A stretch of DNA of 63,997 bases, counting the filler, from Catajapyx aquilonaris (lineage: Eukaryota): the NCBI GenBank assembly GCA_000934665.2. It is 3 parts of 3 records of this genome, joined end to end, with 100 filler letters (N's around TTAATTAATTAA, not from the genome) between each part and the next. Parts side by side here need not be neighbours in the genome. Positions count along the whole stretch, not along the records: positions 42,771 to 63,997 come from JYFJ02006110.1; 2 more parts are not named here. One strand, given 5' to 3'. Positions within the stretch are counted from its first letter, which is position 1; the number at the start of each line of letters is the position of its first letter. Shown piece by piece: positions 21,292-58,620 of the stretch. The notes under the pieces were generated by a model that was given only the letters and a program-made list of their open reading frames with translations, was not told where the DNA came from and did no database searches. Both the position numbers and the translations under genes were made by a program.

Positions 21292-21391
21292 NNNNNNNNN
21301 NNNNNNNNNNNNNNNNNNNNNNNNNNNNNNNNNNNTTAATTAATTAANNNNNNNNNNNNNNNNNNNNNNNNNNNNNNNNNNNNNNNNNNNN
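21292..21391. other. Artificial contig-join spacer
   Basis: Exactly N44 + TTAATTAATTAA + N44 (stops in all six frames), identical to 42671-42770. Confidence 0.97.
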
Positions 21392-31826: not shown

Positions 31827-34800
31827 ATGGACGGGAAGAAGAAGGCAGCTATTGAAGTGTACGCTAGAATTAAGCCACCCGCGAAGAATGTTCCATGCTG
31901 GGTAAGGAAATTTATTAATAATAATATTGGTCAATTCATATTTCCTGTGATGTAACCAAACCATTTCTCTACCACCTCATGTGCAGAATCATACTATTGC
32001 AAGTAGCCTTATGGAGGAATGGCAAATGTTGTACATGACCCGATGCCGTGACAATAGTAAGATAGATGGACACTCATACAGGTATGGTGTTTCTTCTTAA
32101 CTTTTTCGTCCTCAGTCCATATTATAACCTAATCTAACGTATATGGTTTGAAACCTTGATTTGCTGGGCAGTCATATTTAGGTCGAAATTTAGTTACAGG
32201 TATTATAGGTCATATAAATATTATGTCAAGGCCTATTTTCAATAATATTCGACTAGCATGAGTCCTGATTGACTCAATTGATTACAGGTTCAGCCGTGTT
32301 TTTACACCGGATGTGAACCAAGAAGAGGTTTTTGAAATCATGGGAAAGCCTGTAGTAGAAAGGTAAGAGACGAATCCTAATCCGGCCATTATCTAGCTGT
32401 TAAGAAAGGCGCGCATTTGATGAACTTAGGCGCCCCTTCAACTTACGTTAGTACTCTCGTAACACAAGATGTTTGCCGGGGTGGTGGTAGTAATATCTTT
32501 TTAATACCCATCAAAAGAGCTGTAGCGCAGTATTTCATTCTGGAATTTGTATAACGCTGGATGTCCGGGTTTGTACTGTACCCTATATATGGATCCTAGG
32601 GCTTGAGCATGTTATTAGTGTAAAAGCAACATGAGCCAAATTTATAGTCGTTGGAGTGTGGGCTTCCTTACCCTAGCGGAATGTGGAATTGAGCCCCGGA
32701 GCCTACAAGCCATTAGTACTTTTGCAATAGAAAGGAAGCATAACATTCTCGTGGATATACAAGAACAACGTCACAGGCTATTGATCTAGGTTTGCTTGAG
32801 ATTTCAGAGTAACATTCGCCTCTCTCACGGCCTGCCACATTTTCATCATCGAGAGCCCCGAGTGAAACTCGAGCACATGCATCCATCAGAAATGCGCGAT
32901 ATATTAGAGGCCCTCCACCGGCTATTTCGAGTAATACTTCGATTTTCCAATCTTCCGTCTTCTTAAGACATCGGATGACTTTTTGGAGCTTCCGTGATGA
33001 TGTTGAACTTATTTATGATTCACAACTTGTGCAGCCACGCTGCAAACATCTGCTAATGTAGTTGGTAGCGGGGTCCTAACTTAATAAACCGCAACGATAC
33101 CAACTTTCACTCCGAGCAGTAAATCGAGCAAATATGAGGAGAACTTGGTGGCAAATGCGTCATAACGATACTGTAGGCTATACAGCGGGGCGTGCCGATG
33201 GGTCTGCCGGCAAATAATCAAGTCATCATAAGTGACGGAAATTGCATTCCCTGAAGCAAATTCCATTAGTCGCGATCTCTGTTCCACTGCGATTTATCCC
33301 GCTCGGTTTCAAATGGGATGCAAATGAAGCTTCGTGTGTTTATGTCTTTGCAAAATTTGGACATATATTTTTTTTTTCCTTGCCCTCGATTCATGTGCTG
33401 GATTTTCCACAGAGTTCTGAATGGATACAACGGGACCATATTTGCTTACGGCCAGGTAAGTGTGTGTGGATTTGTATATTGATAATCATTAGATGCGACC
33501 TTAATTGGCTTCTTTTAGACTGGAGCAGGGAAGACCTATTCTATGACAGGAGGCGATATGGGTGAGATAGGATTGATTCCTAGAGCTTTGTCCTACATGT
33601 TCTCCAAATTTCGCGAGGTAAGCTTTGAGATATAGATTGAAAGGCTGTTAATCAATCTCATGAATATTCATTGTGACCTCGACAGAATACCACCTGTAAG
33701 CATTCGGTCTACCTATCCTATCTTGAGATTTACAACGAGAACGGATACGATCTCATTTGTCCTAGAAAGACTGACATCCTTGGGATAGAAGAGGTCCCGT
33801 GAGTATCCCATCTTCCCTAATGGGCCAATAAGTAATGAGAGGTGTACAGTGGAGTCTGAGCTAACCTAAGTGGATATTATGAACCGGATTTTCATTCGGG
33901 CTTACCGTTATACTGCCTGGAATTCTTCATGCAGTGGTCCTAGCTCGCTCGAGGCACCTTCCACTTGTTATTGTCGTTTCAAATCTGCCATGCTTTTCCT
34001 GAATACAAGTTTTAATTACCTAGTGGTTCCAAAAACATGCCAGAAGCTGAAAAACAATATTATTATCCCAGCCCATATTTGCTTATTTATTTCCTTAATT
34101 GCATTAATGCATTCACAGAAAGGTAGTTTTGATGGAAGACGCCGAACAAAACCTGCACTTGAAGAATGTGAGTGTGATGCCTGTCCTTTCTGAAGATGAC
34201 GCTTTGGCCTTGTTGCTTCTAGGACAAAAGCGGAGGTGAGTAGTTAGCAATCCGGTAGAAAGCGAGGAGCTGATGTGATTTGTTTCAGGGCAACTGCGAT
34301 AACCCCGATGAACCTGTCATCGACCCGGTCCCATTGTCTCTTCACAATATACGTTATTTCTAGAGAGGAGGGATCGTGCGTGACCAAGAAATCGAAACTT
34401 CACATGGTGGACTTGGCAGGGTTTGTTCTACAAGTTTGGCTGGCTACAGACCACAAAACTGTAATTATTTTTTTTCCAGCTCGGAGCGAGTTCACAAGTG
34501 CAAAGTGCTTGGAAAAACTTTGAATGAGGCTAAAAGCATCAATCGTGCCTTGCACTTTTTGGAAAACGTAATCATGGCTCTGGGTGAGAAAAAGAGGCAC
34601 CATGTTCCATATAGGAACAGCATGATGACTTCTATCCTTCGGGACAGCTTAGGAGGAAACTGTCTGACTACTATGCTGGCTAATGTGTCCTTGGAGGAAG
34701 TCAACTGGGAGGTGCGAAATAATAGCTCTTCAATGGTTTTGACCAACTTTCTGATCATTTCCTTTATTCGCCCCAGGAGTCGGTGTCGACGTGCAGGTTT

Positions 34801-37299
34801 TCCCAAAGAGTATCTCTGGTGGAAAATTTGGCCAAAATCAATGAGGTCCAAGATCCGTTCGTGTTGTTGAGCAAACTACGCGATGAAGTGTGTCGGCTTA
34901 AACAGGAATTGGCTCTGGCTAATGGCCTACAGGTTAACACCAGATTATTTAACCCATTACATAATTCCTAATTTAGATCCGATTATTGAAAATCTGAGAC
35001 ACATGGTATACATGGAAAAAAAGTTTCGGACAAACGTATCCTGTCGTTAAAATAGTACTCTATCAATGTGAAGGTTGAGAAATAAAGTTCCTTCCCCTTG
35101 CTATAGTGCTTATGTTGTATAGAGGCACGATATATTTATCTGAAATCTGAAATACAGTATACCTACTTGAAAGAAATGATCGTTTTATCTGGGTGGCAAG
35201 TCATGAGGAAGTGATGAAACGGAAAAGTCTTATGCCTAAAAATGTGTTCCTACCAATTGTTTTGGACACTAATTTCCTGTTCAGGAACAACATTAATTTC
35301 CTTGTTACTCGTGTATGCCTTCATCATGGGTGAATGTGTAAGTTTCATGTAGGAATACTCTGACGAGTTGACTGAAGAGGAAGTACGACAATGCCGCCTG
35401 CAGATCGCGGAATATTTGAATAACCCCAACCCTGCTAGTTGTGACATACCAGTGGAAGCTGACATGCGCAAGATCAAACTAGCCTTCCAGCTAGTGAGGA
35501 ATGAACTATCCCCAGTTCATCCCAAAAACCAACCAAAAACAAGCCGGGAGGAACAAACAAGACTGGGAGAAAAGAAAGCTTCTCCCCGAAACATTGAAGC
35601 CCAAAAGTTAATCAGACAGCGAGACATGGAAATCAGTATCCTTTTTCTCGGTTCTATGAGTGACTTTAAAAAAATAAATAACAAGTACTTAACACTATCA
35701 TAGAGATACTCATCGACTTGCTTCATAAGGAAAAGAATAACTCTCCCGCCAGCCTGTCAAGTAGCACCGACATCAGTGCATCACTCCTCCTACACACTTC
35801 TTCATCTCTTGTCCGGATCACAGATGATGAAAGTATGGCCACATTTTTATATCGAAATCGCAGATTCTCAGAGTTAAGCAATCAAAAGTGCAAAATGTAG
35901 ACTTTAAACTCCTTGCAGTGTTTTAGTATTCACATCTAGGCAGGAAAATCGGCTTTATAAGAAAGGTCTTGTCAACTCCTTACAGTTCAGCATATAAACC
36001 CTCGCCTGGCTTTTAACATTTAAGCTCCTTATAGGTAGACAGCAGTGTACCAGGACTCATTATTATGCAGTTAATAATAATAATAATAACAACTATTTTC
36101 ACTCTTCACAGGCGATTCTTTGAGGAATGCGAAGAGAGAAGCCCTCAAGGAACGGCTTTCAGTCTTGTATGCTAAAGGGAAAACCGGTGCTGATAGCATC
36201 AGGAAGTGTCGGGATAAAATTAGTAAGTATCTCTCCAGCAGTCATAATTACGCAGACATAATATTACGCCTATTGATTTAAAGGCCTGGCAGCATATGTT
36301 GTCTTCACTCGAGTCGTTAAACCCAACTAACTAACCAACCAAAGGGGGTGCCGTTTTGTAGCACATTGTAACATACCAATAAGCTTCTGGGCTTCTATGT
36401 GGAGTCAAATAATATTGCTTGCACATCACAAAGCACGGTTTATCGACGGTTCTGCTGGCTCCGGCTGTTGGTTTCCCCTTAGTAGCTTCAAAATATGCAG
36501 GATTTTACAGAAGCGTGCGATATGTAACATGTCAGTTAATCTTAATGTAACTACGAAGTAATGCCTGCGTTTTGCCTAATTGGATATAAAATAATTTTAT
36601 ATATACTGTATAATGTAACATCTTCGTGAGGCGCCAGCCCGGAGTTCCCCCCTTCATCTCGTACAGAGTTTGGGGCCATCTCTGACTTCGTCTTGACTTA
36701 TTATGTAACATCTTCACATAAACAGTACAGTTTATGGCATTCATTTATGGACCTCATGCCATTGGGACTTTACCTTCAGCGCCACATGCCTTTCAAGCGC
36801 TTACTTGTGTGATGGGCTGTAATTTTTATATTCCCTGCCAAAGTATGACTACTAGGCTACAAGCGGAAGCTTGCACATTAGCTATAAAAAACTGTATTCC
36901 CTATACACATCTTGAATAATGGATGCCAGGAAAGTGCTTCAATTTTTGAAAGGAATACTGTCAGAGCACTACAGCAATTCGGAGCCGCACGTACCCTGAC
37001 CTCTAAGCTCTAACACTGTTATCACTTTATTGAAAGCAGTGCCAGAAATATGGTGCAAAATGAGCAGTTGCCAATTCAATATTTTAAAGGAAGAGCACCA
37101 TCCCTGCAACATCAATAATGTAGCAAAATTATACATTACCTGCTAAGGCTTGATTGCATGGACGCAATGTAAACCCAAGGAAAAGAGGAGCTGTCAAAAA
37201 ATGAAACTGCCGAAAAATATGTCATTTTCGGGAGTCGAGTTGTATGAATGAATATCACTTGCACTCAAATATGTCCGCAGAATAAATCTGAGAACGGGG

Positions 37300-42670: not shown

Positions 42671-42770
42671 NNNNNNNNNNNNNNNNNNNNNNNNNNNNNN
42701 NNNNNNNNNNNNNNTTAATTAATTAANNNNNNNNNNNNNNNNNNNNNNNNNNNNNNNNNNNNNNNNNNNN
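42671..42770. other. Artificial contig-join spacer
   Basis: N44 + TTAATTAATTAA + N44. Confidence 0.97.
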
Positions 42771-48696: not shown

Positions 48697-51170
48697 AGGT
48701 GGACCTGTTGCTGTTCGTGACCTTCAACAAGATCAAGGCGTTGACGACGAGCATAACCGACCTGAGCCGAGGGCTTGAGTGGGTCTCACCCCGGATGGCA
48801 CCAAGGTGTACAGGATTACACCAGTCAAAGAAAAGGAGGACATGGACGACTGCACCATTTATGTGTTAATAGTCAATATAGCCCCGTAATGTCATCCTCT
48901 GTCACTAATTATCGCTTTAATTTACAGGAGCAACTCCCACCGTTTGTGATTCATGAGTGGCTGAAAGGAATCTTCTCAGAGTACGGTCCTGTCATGTTGT
49001 ACGTTTCAATCCCACGTTTCCGCAAGACTGGAAGAGTCAAGGGATTTGTATTCGTTGAGTATGATAATCCTGACGCTGCCAACAGAGCATTGGAGGTAAT
49101 TCTTTTGAGTTTTCTGGTCACTAATAAATACACTGCACTCCCGATTATCTGGGTGCGGATTATCCGTGCATCGCCAAAACAAAACAGAGTCCGAAAATAT
49201 GTCGATATGTCTCGCAAACAAAGAAATATAACATACTTTTTCCGTTAAAAATCTATAAAACATGTTATTACTGTATTTTGATTAAACCTTAGCATACAGT
49301 ATGAGCAGTAGTTCATTAAAATCTCTGAATAGCTAATTTTTATGTTGTCAGGGACCATTTTCTGATTATCCGGGAACACCTGTGCATTGATTAGACCAGA
49401 TAATCAGGAGTACAGTGCATTTTAATGACAATTGACAAGTCAATATTTTTCATGGACACACCCGTCACAATTAAATGGGGAATGTTTACAGTTATTGAGC
49501 CTTTTAAAACAGACTGCTCTAATTAATATTCATTTAAGTTAGCATTTTTGGCACTAACCTGCTTATTTTAAGGAGTTACTAAAGGAATAATTACTTTTTG
49601 TGCCTATCTTAGCTGCTAATCGGCTAAATTGAATCAGATCCAACCTCTGAATTGCAATGCCTATTGGAACAATTGGCTGATCTATGATAATATTGGAATA
49701 TTTCAGGCTTTTGTAGCTGCAGGATGCTGCCTTCCTGTGGACATGGCTCCAGACAAGCTCAAAAGCATATAAGGACGTATGAAGCTGCAGAGGTATAGAA
49801 GGGGAAGAGGCAGGATAGAGGTTGAAAAGAAGGATAAGGAAGGCAGAGAGGATGACATGAAAGAGGAAGGTGAAGAGAGCAGGAAGGAAAGAGTAGGAAG
49901 CATTGGGAACAGCGAGCGTGATGGGGATGACAAGGGTAACCAGAGGAACCAAGAGGAGGAAGGTGGATTCCGACATGGAGAATGGAGGTGACAGACAGGC
50001 CGATAAGGAGAATGTTCAAGATAAGGATGGAGCTGAGTGCATCCAAGGCCCAAGTACTGTGGCAGAAAAATGCGAGAGTGAGAACCCAGGAGAGAAAAGT
50101 AGTACCGGTACTGAAAATGACAAAAATGCGCCAGTCTGAAAGAGGTCGCATGAGAAAAAGGAAAGCCGATGATGAAGACATAGGTGGAAAAAGAAGAAAA
50201 GTGGACGATGAGACAGCCGAGGAAGAAGCAAAAGTTGCAGATAAAATTAAAGCCGAATCTGAAGAGGAGAGTGAACCTGAAGCTATAAAGGCTCACGTTG
50301 ATGAGACCGAACCTGAGTCAAAAGCGGTTCGCACTGAAGAGACCGAAGATGAAGAGACTACTGACGACCTGAAAAAGGAGCCTGAATCCACCGGAAAAGA
50401 TGTGGAAAAGAAGAAGAAAAACAAGAGAAGGAAGTTCAAAAAGCAGATTAAAGGGCAGCATGAAGTTGCATCTATCAGACTGCAAGTGATGTCCAAGTAA
50501 GTAGCAGCATCTCGAGGTTAACTGTAAATTCTTCAACACTGTGCATGTTAAATCCTGATTGTGCTCCATTTCACCTTACCAGTACTGAATTGTTTCTCTC
50601 CATTGCCAGACATCTCTGGAATCAGTACCTGAACCTTCAGTGGGCTAATATGAAGCAGCAGATAAGGGAAAGTAGGAGACGGGACGAAATGGGGGACGTC
50701 GCGTTGCTGAGGTTCCGGAAGAGACAGTCGAAGAGCAGGCTGTCCCAGAGGAAGCCAAACTCAAGAAGGCCCTGCCACCGCCTCTGGATTTCACTCCTGG
50801 AGTGGTGATCAAGATTACCCTCCATGTACCTCTTGTGGATGTCAAGGAGTTCAAAGTAATAAGCTGTTTATGGGGGAAGAAATATTTATAATTGCTGACG
50901 CTGGTTTTACCTTAAAGGAGAAGCTTCGTGTATGACCAGGAGTCAAGTACGTGGATGCCAATGAAGGCTAAATGAACGTTCGTGCTATGCGATGAGTCTG
51001 CCACGGCCACAGACCTTGCTGAGTCTAAGCCTGAGGAGTACAAGTGGAGCCAGGCAGCCGTTTTGACTGGTGCTGAGGGAGAAGTGTACTGGGAGAAAAT
51101 CCAAGCTGATCGTGAACAGAATCGGAGCGGGAAGTTGGGTTGGATCTCATCTCAGCCCAGGCAGAGATGA
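48697..51170 (+). pseudogene. LARP7: Unprocessed LARP7 (La-related protein 7) pseudogene
   Basis: La-motif part VDLLLFVTFNKIKALTT...PDGTKVYR, RRM1 TIYV|EQLPPFVIHEWLKGIFSEYGPV.YVSIPRFRKTGRVKGFVFVEY (exon 48928-49095), Lys-rich linker ending LQVMSK, YLNLQWANMKQ, xRRM FTPGVVIKI..GVKYVD..YWEKIQADRE. Introns are retained. Multiple frameshifts and stops, and a GT>TT donor after TIYV. Confidence 0.85.
49131..49417. mobile_element. pogo/Tc1-type MITE in a LARP7 pseudogene intron
   Basis: TA-CACTGCACTCCCGATTATCTGG ... CCAGATAATCAGGAGTACAGTG with GATTATCCG subrepeats. Confidence 0.65.
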
Positions 51171-52415
51171 AGGCAAAAGATTCAATGAAAAAGTTACATG
51201 CGTTTAAATAGTGCTTGGAGCCTCTCAGGCTCCACCTACAGAGTTAAGGGTTAAGCTGCTGGCGACGTCCCCTGTCATCCACCCTCCTGAGAAGATAACA
51301 CTGCGCCAAAGAGCCGGATCTAAAGCCAACTGTTGCCATGCCTTGCACACTAAGGAAGCTCTCTTCATCAGATCCTGCTTTGAAAAGGTATGAAAAGACC
51401 TTTGTCTTCATCTCCAGTGGGAGGTCCCAGTGCCATGTCTTCCTGGGTTCACCCTGCAATCATGTTCAAATAATTATACAGAATATTATGAGCAAATTAT
51501 GTTCATATAATTATGCAGATTATTATGAGCAATATTCATATCATCCATATGAAATCTGCATGTTCATCATGCAAACAACACCGAAATTTGTCGAATCTAA
51601 TACCTCCATGGCTCCAAATTGGGTCTTGTTCGAATCATCTGGATTTGGCAAAAGACACTAAATATTTGTGCTAAAATTATTTGGCAGTGTTCAAAGAATA
51701 TAACTCACTGGATGACAATCAATGCAATTCAAACCGCGAGCATCTTACTGAAAGAGTAACGAGTACATCGCTGAAACAGAAAAAATAATAACAAGCTGTC
51801 ATTTTAAGCTATTAAACACTTATTATTATTATTATTCATCACATTAAGTGATTATAAACATTTGACACTTTTAATATGACGCAAAGATGCTCAAAGTTGC
51901 ATCAAGTTAAAACATATTGATTCTTCTCCAGGCACGTAATCCATACCGCATCATTGGAACAATCATTGGATAATTTTGTTGCGTCATTTATGAACAAAAT
52001 ACTTAATTACATGTTAATCTTACATCGGTTAAATCACATCAAAAACAAAAAAACAAACATGCGTGACAAACACCCGTCAAACTCCAACAACATCTAAATA
52101 TGTCAAGTGTAACTAAGTTAATTGAAGCATCATTTCAGAATACAATTAAAATTGACCACATGCTTTAAAAAAAATGATTTCTTGAACCGCATAAGAGCTT
52201 CACAACATTTGTACATCAAATGGTTCAAGCGGCTCAACTTGTCGCAACAATCATCGTTTTGACGTAACGTCAAACTAGCCGTCAATACTTTTGCCTCGTC
52301 GTAATTAACATCGTTTGAACATCGACATGACTCGCACCACCAATAGTGCGTAACTTTTGCCTCATCGTAATTATTAACATCGTTTGAACATGATTCGCAC
52401 TTTCAACTGCATCCT

Positions 52416-55400
52416 TTACAGGAAGTAGAGCCTGTCGCTCATTGACTCGTCAGGAAGCTGGTGCATGTGGTTGGCCACCAGGGTCGTCAGCTTCTCTGCG
52501 TACTGGCATGGAGATGGAACCCTGACCTTTCCGCACCAGTTGAAGTACATGTGGGTCAGAATGTAGGTCGCAACCTGGATGTCATCGGCCGGCACTTTCC
52601 GCTCGTTGTACGGAATCGAGACGTTCGCTGGGGTGACTGTGCCTTGTAGAGACTCCTGGGAGGCGATCAGGAAGTCGCATTTCCCAGGGGCCATTATGCC
52701 CGAGTCGACTATGGTGCCGCCAGCTGGGTTCCCGCCGTCGGTTGAGAAGATCCACGAGTGACACTGTCGGTTGACCACCATGGCCACCAGCTTGTACGGG
52801 CAAAGGTCGCCCAAGCCGCTCAGGTAATTGTACAGTTTGTCCAAGTAAAACTTGACCCACTGGACCTCCCTGTACATGGTGCGGGTGATCTGGCCTTCAC
52901 TCACGCCATTGCGGTACACGAATATGGTGCTGGGCAATAGCCCGCGGTTGCAGTCTGCGTAGTGCTTTGCGGGGGCGGCCACCGCTTTTCCGATGTTCTG
53001 CGGCATATCATTCTCATCCGCTTCTCGGCTGGCTTGGCTGAAGTACCGGCTACAGTTGTCTCTGTAGTTGGCCACGACCGAGCCCACGGTGGTGGCAGGA
53101 TCCAACGAATCGAACGACACATCAACTCCGACGAACATCCCGTTTTCTATAGGGTGCTCAACGGCCCAGGGCTCTCCTCCGAGCTTGCAGTTGATCTGAA
53201 TCGCCATTTTCACAGCGACGAATCCCAGTCCCTTATTACCCGGATTAAGCCGCCATCCGAGGACCATCCGGCTTGCAATGCACAGCTCCGTGTTGCACAG
53301 CACCTTCATGTCATCGTACACATCATCAATCACTCCATCCATTACGACCAGTACGAGCTGGATGGGACCAGGCGACTGGCTGCTTCCACCCGGCCCATCA
53401 GGTCGTACGAAGCCATGGTACATCGAACGCATCACGTGCACATGGTAACCAGCCGAGGTGTCATCCAGAACAACGCTACAAAGAATATCGTTAACGACTT
53501 GAACTCCGTTATATTCAGATTCAACTCATGTGTGTCTCGGAGGCGGAATATGAAAGCCGAGCGCTCTGGCGGAGGAAATCAGCCGAGGTATGAACTGGCG
53601 TGTGTCACGCTCATGGGCAGCAGATGTCATTACCACCCAGTTGTTAACGACCGCGCATGCAGACATGTGACTGACTGAAAATTAATACAATTAATTAATT
53701 CTAGTTTTCGCAAGTTGTCAACTAACTTACATCTCAGATATTTGGTCCAGTCTCTGTAGATACCCGGATCGATCTTGCCTCGTTTGCAGGACAGCGTCCA
53801 GAGCGGCTGCAGCACCCGGGCGCTCACCTGGATGCTACCGTGTCTGATGCTGATCCCCCAGTAGCTGAGCTCACGTTGCACCTGGTCTTCATCGTTAAGA
53901 GAGGTGCACAGTTCCTCGATCTGGGACAATCGCTGCGCTGGCCCCATGTGGGTGAGGTGTGAGAGGGCCTTCATCAGTCGGAAGTCGGATCTCATCGCGG
54001 TGGTCAGTCCTGTCAGATAGGAAAGTTCGGGCACGAGATAAACCGTCTCTTGGACATCATCCAGAGCTTTCTTCCCCCGCTTCTTGGTGACGACCAGGAG
54101 CGGTTGCAGCGAATACTTCAGATCGATGTCATACCGCTGAAGAATGCCAAGTCGTTAGTCGGTGATGCGCATAATGCCCCCAATGCACTTACATGCTTGT
54201 AGTAGTCGACGAATGTTGTTTGCACGCCCTTGTAATCAAACTTTGAGGACGGATTCACCGTCCAGTCGACTCCTATCACCAAGTATGTCCTGCGGTTGTA
54301 GTGGGTCATAACAATAGTCCCTTTAAAGAACTGCTCGCAGTGCTTGCGATAGTGCACTGGATCCTTAGCCCGCGCGCTGCTCAACACGTCAACGACAGTC
54401 GAGCTGCGAAGTACTTTGTGGGTCATATCCACTCGCAGGAGCAATCCAGCGTCGCGTTGATGGACGGACGTAATGTATCCGGGCCACAGCTCCAACTGCT
54501 CTCTTTCCATCGTGATTTTCTACTTTCTGTCGTAGAAGTAGCGGCCAAGCTGATCGAAATCTTTGTGTAACATACACCTACGCAGCAATATGCCAACTAG
54601 CTGCACGTACAAGGCATCAGCCGGATCAAGTACTTTGACGACCTCGACTTCAACTGTCATAAGTATGCTGTCCGAATTACGCTTTGCCTTGATGATGATG
54701 GGCTGCGGCAAAAAAATTAAGATGAGTATAACTGTGCGGGTTACAGCTTCTCGTTTACTTACCTCTTCTACCCTCCTTGCCGCGTAAATCACCGAGCCGT
54801 CGAAAATGTACTTTCCGAGCTTCTCCTCCATGACGTGGCTCATCGAGCGGAGAAGCCCTTTGCGGAATATCTGTTCCTCTTCGTCCGGCGTGATTGTGAC
54901 TTGGTATAGATAGATCCTGAAAGCTTCCTTTTGCTCAATGTCGAAATAGTTCAACAGGACTTCAACTGGTCTCCCGCAGGATCCCAGGCCAGGCGTGGGG
55001 AGCTGGGGATGAAGCGGTAGTCCTTCAGCCGGCCAGAGCTGTCCGTCCTGCTTCTCACTGGTGTCGGACCAGTCGAAATCCCTTTCCTTTCGAGGCTTCA
55101 GCCTTATGGAAGTGCCCTTGTTAGAGTCTGTCCACGGATGTTTCACTCGGGGCTGGGCTTTTCTATCCGCAATAACTGATTCAGGGTTGATTCCTCCGAC
55201 GGCACCTTCATCCTCTGCAGACCATGCCGCTTGGTCGACCTGCAGCCTCAGAGCCTCCACTTGCAAAGCTAACGTGTTGTCTGAGGACACAATAGCTGAT
55301 TTGGCACTAGGAACAAATGGAGGTGCCTCAGGCTCCTGCGACTACGGAAGCAGCGGGTACAAACGGAGGCGCGTCGGGATTCGGTGCAGCTTTTGGTTTG

Positions 55401-55516
55401 GCGGCACTGGTAGGAACAAAATCTGGTGCGTCCGGATTAGGACAGAATGACTGCGGGATGGGCTGGGTGTAGTACGAAGCGACAGACGAATCCTGCGGAT
55501 CCGGCCAACATTGCAT
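52416..55516 (-). pseudogene. piwi: Piwi/Aubergine-family Argonaute paralogue, near full-length but disabled in this assembly
   Basis: Exons 54763-55516, 54193-54702, 53731-54136, 53530-53674, 52416-53475 with 54-60-bp introns. N (G..GRPVEVLLNYF), L1 (LELWPGYITSV..DMTHKVLR), PAZ (YNRRTY..VDW..TFVDYY..QPLLV..YLVPEL), MID and PIWI (QINCKLGGEPW, GVDV, GTVTP, LTHMYFNWCGKVRVPSPCQYA, RLYFL). Lesions: frameshift near 55335-55345, in-frame TAG at 54520-54522, and donor ATGAGT instead of GTGAGT at 53529. Confidence 0.92.
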
Positions 55517-55702
55517 CGCCTCATTCTGCAAGAAATCCGCAGCATTAGACACATTGAGAGGCATTGTTGCAGTATGTCTCACCCAAGATGCGGCTCCTTC
55601 AGGTGGATGGCGGCGCAACAGGGTCACTCAAGGCAGCGGTATCACCTCTGTGTTAAACAGGAATTGTTTGCTGTTGTCTGCGGGCATATACTGGGCTTGA
55701 TA

Positions 55703-55707
55703 TAATA

Positions 55708-55779
<72 letters not shown>

Positions 55780-58620
55780 TTTATTTCCCTATACAAAGCA
55801 GTATTTGGAAAGACCATCCCCCTCCAAAACTTACATAACAATATCACATAGTTGTAATTTTTTCACTGCACATTTAAAAAAATTATATAAAGAAAAAACC
55901 TTTACAGTAGGCATATCTATGTACAAGGTATATACATCATCTGGTGGAACCCTCGGAAAATCTCTTATACACTCAAGAGCTTCTTGGTAGAAAATACACT
56001 CAAACAGGATATGAAAAAGAGAACAACCAACCATATCATTACATAAGGAACATATTTCTTCATTGTCAATTTTCATACAGTAGTAACCTTGGATGTAGAG
56101 AACTCTGGAATTATTCCTTAAATTTATCATTAATCGCGTTAATTTTAGTGGCATCCCCTGATGCAAATAATTCTCCTGTAAATATCCATTCGAGATTTCA
56201 AAATAATGTTTATATGCTCGTGTGTTCTCCAATGCCACACGGTCCGCCTCGAGTGTATTATCCACAAAGGTTGTAATTAGTTTGCTTGCATCAATATCTT
56301 CATAATTTGTCAACCAATATTGCCAAGATATTCCAGCGTTTATTAACAGCGCTTCTGCAAAAGTATACCAATCCCTACTCTTTTTCTCTCTCTCACATAT
56401 TTGGTATTCAAAACCTTGCCTAATTATACTTTCCCTTGGTTCTCTCATAATTTTTTTAAGAAACTTCAACAGTTAAAAAAAAATTTGTATCGAAATTGTT
56501 CTGCGTCCTGTTTCATATCTAAGAAAATAACCAGCACTGGAACGGGGCAGAGTAAAAAAAATTTCAAGAAAAAGGTTTGGACGCGATCCACATCCTGCAT
56601 ATATTGCAAAGCCCACAAATGTGAGTTATACAATATACGTAGATGGCGCTACTTGTGCATCAAACAGGCGAGTTGCAGTATTTAACTTTCTTAACTTTAG
56701 TTTAATTAAAGTTGGCCACATCATATTTATCACTTTTTTTCCTTTACTAACAAAATATTGTAATGCTCTACTGAAGCTTCCTGATGAAGCAAATAATATT
56801 CCTAAATATTTATATTCATTTACTATTTGTACTTTTTCTCCATCCCAAAAAAAGTTCAAATTTTTTGGAAATTGACCACCTTTCCGAAACACCATCACTT
56901 TTGTTTTTGTCAAGTTAAGTTGCAATAAATTTTCTTTTAAATAATTTGCGAAAGCCGTGAGTTCTTTCTGTAAATACATTGGATTTGTTCCCAGCAACAC
57001 AATATCGTCAGCAAATTGCCTGGTCCAAAATTCACTCCCGGTATTTCCTTATCTTGAAACATATTCTTCATATCCGCCACAAATAGATTAAATAATATTG
57101 GGCTTAACGGCTCACCCTGTAGCACTCCTTTCCTTATTGGTATTTGCGTATTGTTGTCTTGGGATACAACTGTTGCCCCTTGATATACAGGGTGATCCAA
57201 CTTTATGGCACCAGTAGTTATTGGAAAAATCGCGCAAGCTGCTTGTTTATAAGCATGTCGTTGCTAAGAGATGCTTTCTGGCTCTTTCTGGAGAATCGGG
57301 AATAGCACCTGCTGATATTAGGTCCAATTCCCATGTAACAATTAATGAGGGAAAAAAGGGTCATCCATGGGAAACAGGCTCTGTTCTGGTGTTCGCCGGA
57401 GGGTTTCACATGAGGTCACTAGCGGCCAAACCAGAGGCCTAATCCGTCGGAACTGGACAGACCCGGGTGTGTCAATAAATAGGCCTTCTGGTCTGTTCAT
57501 TGTTGGCCGCAGTTGGCGCAGCGTTGTTTAGTTACCAGTATAAATAAATAGCTCTTGTAGAGTCAGGACCAGGACATGCCTTACTCACGGGGCCTGTTCG
57601 AGGGCCGCCCAAGGGCTTCCAGGGTTCTAACAGTACAGTCTGCATTGGGCATTCTCTCATTAATTGGTACATGTATGGGCATTGGACCTAATATCAGCAG
57701 GTGCTAAGACTGGTAACTAAACAACGCTGCCTGTTGACCTGTCCCAGTTGCGCCAACTGCGGCCAACAATGAACAGACCAGAAGGCCTATTTATTGACAC
57801 ACCCGGGTAGTTCCGACGGATTAGGCCTGTGGTTTGGCAGATAGTGACCTCATGTGAAACCCTCCAGCGAACACCAGAACAGGCCTGTTTCCCACGGATG
57901 ACCCTTTTTTCCCTCATTAATATTGTTACATGGGCATTGGACCTAACATCAGCAGGTGCTATTCCCGATTCTCCAGAAAGAGCCAGAAAGCATCTCTTAG
58001 CAACGACCTGCTTATAAACAAGCAGCTTGCGCGATTTTTCCAATAACTACTGGTGCCATAAAGTTGGATCACCCTGTATGTTAATTAACGTCTTCAAAAA
58101 ATTATTATTACTTATTCCAAATCTCCATAGTTTTTCAAATAGCAATTTATGGTTAACTGAATCAAAAGCTTGTTTAAGGTCTACAAAAACCGCATATAGC
58201 TTCCCCGATTTTTTTGCGTATATTTCTGTACCAGTGAATTCAATATAAAAATTAAATCTTCGCATGATTTTCCTTTTCTAAACCCCACTTGGGTCTCAGG
58301 AAACCGATCATGCTTTTCCGCCCATGTAGACAATCTATTTACCAAAATGGAAGTAAACAATTTTAGCAGATGATTTAGTAGCGCTATCGGTTCTGTAATT
58401 CTGGGGGGCTTCCGGATTTCCCTCTTTAAAAATTGGGATCATCCGGATTGTCACCCAATTTTGTGGCACAGTATGAGTCGTCAAAATTTTGTTATACAAT
58501 TTAAGTAGAACATTTTGTAACTGACTCGATTCTAGTTTCATCACTTCGTTTGGAATAGTGTCCGGACCCACTGCTTTCCGGGTACGTAGTCGTTGAATAC
58601 TATATTGTAATTCTCTCAGC
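55703..58620 (-). mobile_element. 5'-truncated non-LTR retrotransposon (RTE-X-like LINE), frameshifted
   Basis: RT motifs KAVGPDTIPNE, IPIFKEG.P..PQNYR, FVDLKQAFDSV, GVLQGEPLSPILFNLFV, FADDIVLL, KTKVMVFRKGG, YKYLG; C-terminal CSLC...HILFEC; AATAAA plus (TTA)n tail at 55703-55786. Confidence 0.88.
57188..58076. mobile_element. Long-TIR Tc1/mariner-type MITE inserted in the LINE RT
   Basis: TA-CAGGGTGATCCAACTTTATGGCACCAGTAG ... CTACTGGTGCCATAAAGTTGGATCACCCTG-TA with arms of ~350 bp. Removing it restores TLINIYQGATV. Partial copies at ~60998-61296 and ~63820-63901. Confidence 0.88.

Follow-up and report, generated by a model that had tools for sequence, protein, structure and literature searches.

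The window analysed here is a stretch of 63,997 nucleotides, filler included, from the genome of Catajapyx aquilonaris (assembly GCA_000934665.2), in which a Piwi gene occupies positions 52416-55564 on the minus strand. In this gene, the N-terminal tail carries tandem peptides that resemble PAM2, the motif bound by the MLLE domain of poly(A)-binding protein (PABP). We propose that the gene belongs to a multi-copy and fast-evolving Piwi family as a decayed copy that still has its introns, and that the tail of this family docks on an MLLE domain, likely that of PABP; we assign this reading as a whole a probability of about 0.5. Its parts are not equally firm. Judged from sequence alone, the PAM2-type motif array is a real and selected feature of this Piwi subfamily, and the copy in the window is very probably a pseudogene that yields no functional protein.

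Motif repeats in the N-terminal tail

All three repeat units lie in the first coding exon and are read from the minus strand. Motif 1, PNPDAPDFVP (55412-55441), stands in the frame of the start codon with F-C ahead of it, and a 20-residue cut-out around it scored 15.6 bits against the Pfam family PAM2. Motif 2, PNPDAPPFVP (55355-55384; 15.7 bits), lies 57 nt (19 codons) farther on in the same frame. Motif 3 is present in the window as the remnant PEAPPFVP (55309-55332; 13.3 bits) in the frame of the N domain, and it reads PNPEAPPFVP in the paralogue contigs described below. The first-pass annotation of this DNA had reported the three peptides, and each was found exactly where it had been placed. 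Its statement that the third motif shares the frame of the N domain, with the first two one frameshift away, is likewise borne out: the frame opened by the ATG at 55564-55562 closes at a TGA at 55330-55328, and the N-domain frame is the open reading frame (ORF) 55341-54520. The reported lack of an RG/RA-rich tract also holds, as the disordered N-terminal 188 residues contain no RG and a single GR, right where the N domain begins.

Once the 11 nt that the window copy lacks are restored, the units are spaced exactly 57 nt (19 codons) apart (n = 3). In the comparison of units 1 and 2, the motif part is identical at 9/10 residues and 21/30 nt, whereas the linker part is identical at only 1/8 residues and 10/24 nt. 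Among the codons of motifs 1 and 2, 3 are identical, 6 carry synonymous changes and 1 carries a replacement. By this codon pattern, the peptide is kept while its surroundings drifted, which is the signature of a selected short linear motif conserved within diverged linkers. No 57-nt DNA repeat was detected by TRF, and the duplication is therefore old. The frequency of such an array by chance was estimated from 200,000 composition-preserving shuffles of the 188 residues, in which at least two matches to a PAM2 regular expression occurred in 0.0085% and at least three A..F.P cores in 0.011% of cases; one full match arises by chance in 1.3% of the shuffles of this Pro/Ala-rich tail. The expression was an ELM-style PAM2 pattern, and the motif copies, having arisen by duplication, are not independent events. 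The codon pattern is stronger evidence than the shuffles.

PAM2 has been defined as --Phi-(P/V)-A--F-P, with Ala7 and Phe10 invariant and Pro usual at position 12; Leu predominates at position 3, which is "occasionally proline or phenylalanine", Asn or Ser occupies position 4, and the residue favoured at position 9 is Glu (Kozlov and Gehring, 2010; PMC2854688). According to the same source, PAN3 has Pro3, and the PAM2-C of eRF3 binds via Phe1 and Pro3. Huntzinger et al. (2010; PMC3018788) call E-F-x-P invariant in PAM2. Motif 1 of the Piwi tail reads F1-C2-P3-N4-P5-D6-A7-P8-D9-F10-V11-P12, and motifs 2 and 3 share P3, N4, P5, A7, F10, V11 and P12 with it. Positions 3, 4, 5, 7, 10 and 12 agree with the published definition in motifs 1 and 2 of the window and in motif 3 of the paralogue contigs, and the turn residue Asn4 is present in each full motif. 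PAM2 (PF07145) was the sole Pfam family that matched the tail, at 20.2 bits over two stretches of a 79-residue query starting at 55567 (cutoff 20). A protein-language-model search of the tail in the Atlas returned as its sole listed match a small cluster of which 65% are PAM2 members; with a score of 0.76, this lead is weak. A complex prediction of an MLLE domain with a 47-residue two-motif peptide, run without controls and without an alignment, scored 0.21 and 0.20, where the mark is 0.34, and has no bearing on binding in either direction; the modelled MLLE was of the insect type, from a metagenome locus, and is 95% identical to a leafhopper PABP. The first-pass description of the motifs as PAM2-like thus stands with respect to the published definition and to the signature of conserved motifs in diverged linkers, and is less secure with respect to Pfam, where the score is only marginally at threshold.

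Gene structure, lesions and paralogues

The identification of the gene as a Piwi, also made in the first-pass annotation, is well founded. The Pfam family Piwi (PF02171) matched at 187.7 bits and 4e-55 (cutoff 28.9). PAZ (PF02170; cutoff 28.8) is divided between two exon pieces, which scored 47.6 and 43 bits. The ArgoN match in exon 1 reached 25.9 bits, under its cutoff of 30.9, and ArgoL1 and ArgoL2 gave weaker Pfam matches. In a comparison with the sequences of the Protein Data Bank (PDB), the best solved relative of the PIWI domain was Bombyx Siwi (5GUH; 180 bits, 6.8e-52). The range for PIWI-clade structures was 134-180 bits, including PIWIL1 (173.6), Drosophila Piwi (163.8) and PIWIL2 (~135), and the human AGO1-4 of the AGO clade gave at most 74 bits. 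By these scores, the gene is a PIWI-clade Argonaute, nearer to the PIWI clade than to the AGO clade. It is present in a single copy within the window, where tBLASTn of six pieces of the gene returned self-matches only, and no Pfam family was found in the four opposite-strand ORFs tested across the locus.

The gene consists of five exons and four introns of 54-60 nt, with borders set by string position, reading frame and alignment to five distant Piwi proteins. The start codon (55562-55564) is the first ATG past the upstream in-frame stop. Exon 1 (54763-55564) encodes the disordered tail with the three motifs and the start of the N domain, and contains a frameshift at 55330/55329. Intron 1 (54703-54762, 60 nt), intron 2 (54137-54192, 56 nt) and intron 3 (53675-53730, 56 nt) all have the form GTAAGT...CAG. 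Between them, exon 2 (54193-54702) encodes the N domain, linker 1 and the first half of PAZ, with an in-frame TAG at 54522-54520, and exon 3 (53731-54136) encodes the second half of PAZ and linker 2. Exon 4 (53530-53674) covers the MID region. It is followed by a probable intron 4 (53476-53529, 54 nt), which starts with AT instead of GT and has a TGA inside (53528-53526), and by exon 5 (52416-53475), which encodes the PIWI domain through the stop TAA (52418-52416) with the protein end ...RLYFL. A processed retrocopy is ruled out, as the introns are kept. The 18 residues that the 54 nt of intron 4 would encode form an insertion relative to 4/5 of the aligned Piwi proteins. The sole GT-AG alternative for this intron, of 50 nt, was rejected since it retains the TGA and disrupts the frame.

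There is no uninterrupted reading frame in the window copy, which has the frameshift, the TAG and an AT-starting intron 4 with a TGA. At the break point (55328-55331), the window copy lacks 11 nt that the paralogues have, and this deletion yields both the frameshift and the TGA at 55330-55328. The TAG at 54522-54520 sits within the conserved stretch 'GR.Y(F)Y...LE.WPGY'. In the catalytic tetrad D-E-D-H, the D, E and D are present, and the fourth position (52494-52496) is GAG, encoding Glu, where Siwi and four aligned homologues have His (CQYAEKL compared with CQYAHKL in Siwi). The slicer tetrad of the window copy thus reads D-E-D-E. Several other conserved sites are canonical in the paralogue and altered in the window (N.R vs H.W at 52760/52754, and P-H vs P-D at 52451). 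Because of the frameshift, the TAG, the AT-starting and TGA-bearing intron 4 and the Glu in place of the catalytic His, we consider the window copy very probably a pseudogene. An alternative genetic code for the stops was rejected, because the paralogues have a sense codon in place of the TAG, and the TGA is intronic.

The paralogues were recognized in contigs from public reads, comprising four runs (X1, X2, X3 and X5) out of five that contain parts of the stretch, all of one organism and from two studies. Runs X1-X3 are DNA; the kind of X5, with about 32 Mb of contigs, is unrecorded, and no run is listed as RNA. Sites without cover in a run were left out for that run, such as 55329/55330 in X1 and X2. 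Two classes of contigs were present: those identical or nearly identical to the window, at a depth of about 19-21 per contig, and those 90-95% alike, at about 90-170. This suggests several collapsed paralogues and hence a multi-copy family, although depth is only a rough guide. With T in place of A at 54522, the TAG becomes AAG (Lys); this form makes up 206.4 of the 255.9 depth in X1, 168.1 of the 202.6 in X2 and all of that in X3 and X5. The TAG allele is carried by the minority (49.5 of 255.9 in X1 and 34.5 of 202.6 in X2), and the stop allele of the window is therefore a real minority form. At the break point, 6 and 5 extra letters were found behind 55329 and 55330 in one contig each of X3 and X5, from two studies; these are the only 2 of the 4 runs that cover the site, and both carry the insert. 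On the minus strand the 11-nt insert encodes Gly-Pro-Asn-Pro, which restores the frame and completes the third motif as PNPEAPPFVP. By the refuting condition set in the first-pass annotation, intact paralogues should keep the motifs, and the contigs agree with this in that their frame is restored and their third motif is whole; a full-length intact copy was not among them.

Apart from the 11-nt insert, all indels of the main paralogue lie within introns 1-4 or the untranslated regions. In the paralogue contigs, a 3-nt indel was found in intron 1, 1-nt indels in intron 2 (54139 and 54142) and a 1-nt indel in intron 4, and at 55564 one of two adjacent A's is lost in a paralogue contig with the ATG kept. 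Substitutions relative to the window numbered 302, of which 40 were listed: 5 are non-coding and 35 coding, the latter made up of 20 synonymous and 15 replacement changes (TAG to AAG included). Among these listed coding changes, the synonymous excess is far above the neutral expectation. One contig of X5 joins 53731 exactly to 53674, which corresponds to intron 3 (GT..AG on the minus strand), and none of the contigs of X1-X3 has this joint. The loose end of another X5 contig at 53471 reads from exon 4 into exon 5 with 54 nt missing. Since exons are joined in X5 and the intron-3 joint is absent from the DNA runs, its contigs look transcript-derived; one of them spans 55175-55423, within the motif region. 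In X1-X3, a contig of depth 11.8-28.1 at 54043-54925 lacks several pieces of 35-120 nt that the window has, and the genome seems to contain at least one further, more damaged paralogue.

Relatives outside this genome are distant. Compared with longer database proteins, the PIWI domain had 6 matches (crab, collembolan and unnamed), the best at 36% identity, and in the Atlas search it fell in generic Argonaute clusters only. A 193-residue piece of exon 1 searched against 1.84 billion representatives gave 50 matches at E<=0.001 and none at E<=1e-10; no match covers a motif, and all database alignments of exon 1 begin at query residue 76 or later. The 78-residue tail had 143 candidates among longer proteins, none at E<=10, and no match at E<=10 among the PDB sequences. 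A metagenome scan for exon-1 relatives yielded 90 pattern matches, of which 0 were confirmed. As the identity of the PIWI domain to any database protein is at most 36% and no database relative has the motif, the subfamily is, by these comparisons, fast-evolving.

Proposed docking and alternative explanations

We hypothesize that the better-preserved copies of the family have a continuous N-terminal frame from the ATG, in which three 19-residue units (PNP[D/E]AP[D/P]FVP) replace the arginine-glycine repeats. Each motif would fit into the peptide-binding groove of an MLLE domain, with cytoplasmic PABP as its most likely bearer. Three copies could then let a Piwi loaded with small RNA hold several PABPs along a single poly(A) tail. 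It would mean that target recognition is coupled directly to the fate of the mRNA, with no need for a GW182-like adaptor and perhaps none for slicing. The outcome might be deadenylation and repression, as for GW182, PAN3 and Tob, or stabilisation and translation, as for Aubergine-PABP. This step is more speculative than the docking, and the effect on mRNA may run in either direction. The farthest-reaching form of the proposal is that an expressed, multi-copy Piwi subfamily swapped its ancestral methyl-arginine/Tudor tail for a triple PAM2 array, which clamps the loaded Piwi onto poly(A) tails coated with PABP, and so became a piRNA effector complete in itself, independent of GW182 and possibly of slicing, that governs the deadenylation or translation of its target mRNAs. 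We put this form forward tentatively, as a possibility that we would lean against.

The identity of the partner is where other explanations have most room. The motif could be selected for a partner that is not an MLLE domain, such as a lineage-specific piRNA-pathway factor that replaces Tudor docking, and its likeness to PAM2 would then be coincidental. The signature of selection is silent on the partner, and such a coincidence would fit Pfam scores at or under threshold, residues at positions 3 and 9 that differ from the commonest ones and the 1.3% of tail shuffles with one match. However, all six published positions (6/6) agree in each full motif, including Asn4 and the invariant Ala7 and Phe10, motif 1 has the pair Phe1 and Pro3 as in the PAM2-C of eRF3, and no family other than PAM2 was matched in the tail. 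We therefore regard a partner of another kind as unlikely, though it deserves serious attention. If the partner has an MLLE domain, it need not be PABP. The other MLLE protein of animals is the HECT ubiquitin ligase Hyd/UBR5, and the MLLE of UBR5 binds PAM2 peptides, so the tail could instead control the turnover or regulation of Piwi. The motif evidence for Hyd/UBR5 is the same as for PABP; three tandem copies, however, should suit multimeric PABP on poly(A) better than the single domain of a ligase, and this alternative appears improbable. Nor do we find it probable that the repeats are functionless, that is, a proline-rich tandem duplication of low complexity whose units are alike because they were duplicated recently or homogenized by gene conversion, within a family mostly in decay. 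In favour of this reading, the copy in the window is dead and at least one further divergent paralogue contig has several deletions. Recent duplication or conversion should have left a repeat detectable at the DNA level, contrary to what was found; moreover, 6/7 of the codons that differ between motifs 1 and 2 are synonymous, the linkers are unalignable, and the listed coding differences to the main paralogue comprise 20 synonymous against 15 replacement changes.

It is also conceivable that the window gene is functional and makes the motif protein here, its lesions being assembly errors or rare alleles. The AT donor of intron 4 is known from the assembly alone, and the site of the 11-nt deletion is covered by no window-identical contig, so an assembly fault is possible there. 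On the other hand, the TAG allele is present in contigs of both X1 and X2, an 11-nt deletion and base substitutions are atypical of assembly errors, and three independent lesions, together with the Glu for the catalytic His and the non-canonical residues at conserved sites, fit relaxed constraint. A functional window gene is thus very improbable in our view. Returning to docking on an MLLE domain, several observations besides this uncovered deletion count against it. The PAM2 scores are marginal, with 19.3 bits for the 99-residue ORF and 13.3-15.7 for single motifs against the cutoff of 20. The affinity may be low, since position 3 has Pro in place of the usual Leu, and the preferred Glu of position 9 is replaced by Asp in motif 1 and by Pro in motifs 2 and 3. 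The PAM2-N of eRF3 likewise has Pro at position 9. No full-length intact paralogue or orthologue was found in the read contigs and protein databases searched, and the paralogue evidence consists of short contigs of a collapsed gene family in which nonsense substitutions are possible. Deep conservation is also lacking, as a regular-expression scan found an N-terminal PAM2-like motif in 0 of the 56 distant Piwi proteins retrieved; the lone match among them is the conserved C-terminus of a crab protein. From the literature, the PAM2 of Drosophila GW182 is conserved, yet dispensable for PABP binding (Huntzinger et al., 2010; PMC3018788), and Aub(1-482) bound RRM1 of PABP, not its PABC/MLLE domain (Ramat et al., 2020; PMC7196074).

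Surroundings and comparison with known systems

Upstream of the Piwi gene, on the minus strand at 55831-57263, are reverse transcriptase fragments (RVT_1, 28.1 and 23.4 bits, both under the Pfam cutoff), about 270 nt from the Piwi start, and a TAA/ATT trinucleotide microsatellite of about 26 copies (55702-55779) lies between them and the gene. A remnant of a retroelement of the non-LTR type may have displaced the Piwi promoter region. In the 3' flank past the stop (52300-52413), the summed contig depth in X1 is 1328, compared with about 130-400 over the gene, and at 52353-52391 the paralogue contigs pass into dissimilar sequence; the border of the duplicated unit is apparently marked by a high-copy repeat. 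At a distance of 2-3.6 kb from the 3' end of the Piwi gene, the plus strand carries first an ORF with an RRM_1 domain (48766-49245; 42.4 bits) and then an ORF rich in Lys and Glu (49940-50500). The first is probably an unrelated gene for an RNA-binding protein. Farther away, an exon-sized ORF on the plus strand (34364-34867) matches the C-terminal portion of the kinesin motor domain (PF00225) at 83 bits. The paired 44-N runs with 12 bases between them at 21292-21391 and 42671-42770 are the filler joints of the stretch.

PIWI proteins affect the stability and translation of mRNAs besides acting on transposons, and how they gain access to the poly(A)/PABP machinery is partly understood. Like Siwi, Aubergine, Drosophila Piwi and MIWI, the protein encoded in the window has the domain order N-PAZ-MID-PIWI, a C-terminal ...LYFL and a disordered N-terminal tail, the docking platform of such proteins. 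Canonical PIWI tails bind Tudor proteins through methylated RG/RA repeats (PMC8249470; PMC10681313). Unlike these, the tail described here has no RG and three PAM2-like units, compared with 10 RG/GR in the first 150 residues of crab Piwi2. Unlike PIWI proteins of the Siwi type, the window copy also has Glu as its fourth catalytic residue. No description of a PAM2 motif in a PIWI protein was found by a full-text literature search, as far as titles and the beginnings of abstracts allow this to be judged.

The individual motifs resemble the PAM2 of eRF3/GSPT1 and PAN3, which are 12-residue peptides with a hydrophobic position 3, Asn4, Pro/Val5, Ala7, Phe10 and Pro12. The known PAM2 motifs of eRF3 and PAN3, however, belong to translation and decay factors, whereas here they occur in an Argonaute, with Asp or Pro in place of Glu9. 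In eRF3 two PAM2 motifs adjoin, and multiple copies raise the affinity (Kozlov and Gehring, 2010; PMC2854688). Compared with eRF3, the three copies in the Piwi tail are non-overlapping and spaced 19 residues apart, and more than one MLLE could therefore bind at once.

A contact between a PIWI protein and PABP has a precedent in Aubergine, which binds PABP directly via its N-terminal half and alters what becomes of mRNAs targeted by piRNAs (Ramat et al., 2020; PMC7196074). The term PAM2 is absent from that paper. The proposed contact would be like the translational activation by Aubergine-PABP-eIF3 in Drosophila germ plasm, and unlike it in that its route is the MLLE groove. If true, it would add a second, structurally defined PIWI-PABP route beside the one mapped contact, from the N-terminal half of Aubergine to RRM1 of PABP. 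It would also mean that the tails of duplicated Piwi genes are a site where new partner specificities evolve. The closest functional parallel would be GW182/TNRC6, in which a small-RNA-guided Argonaute is linked to PABP by a PAM2-MLLE contact of the kind predicted here. In human TNRC6, the change of Phe to Ala in PAM2 abolishes both binding and silencing (Huntzinger et al., 2010; PMC3018788). The PAM2 of GW182 resides on a separate adaptor bound by AGO, whereas in the present case it is built into a PIWI-clade Argonaute. To our knowledge, the PIWI clade does not use GW182. The Piwi subfamily of C. aquilonaris may thus represent a PIWI-clade counterpart of the AGO-GW182-PABP axis within one polypeptide.

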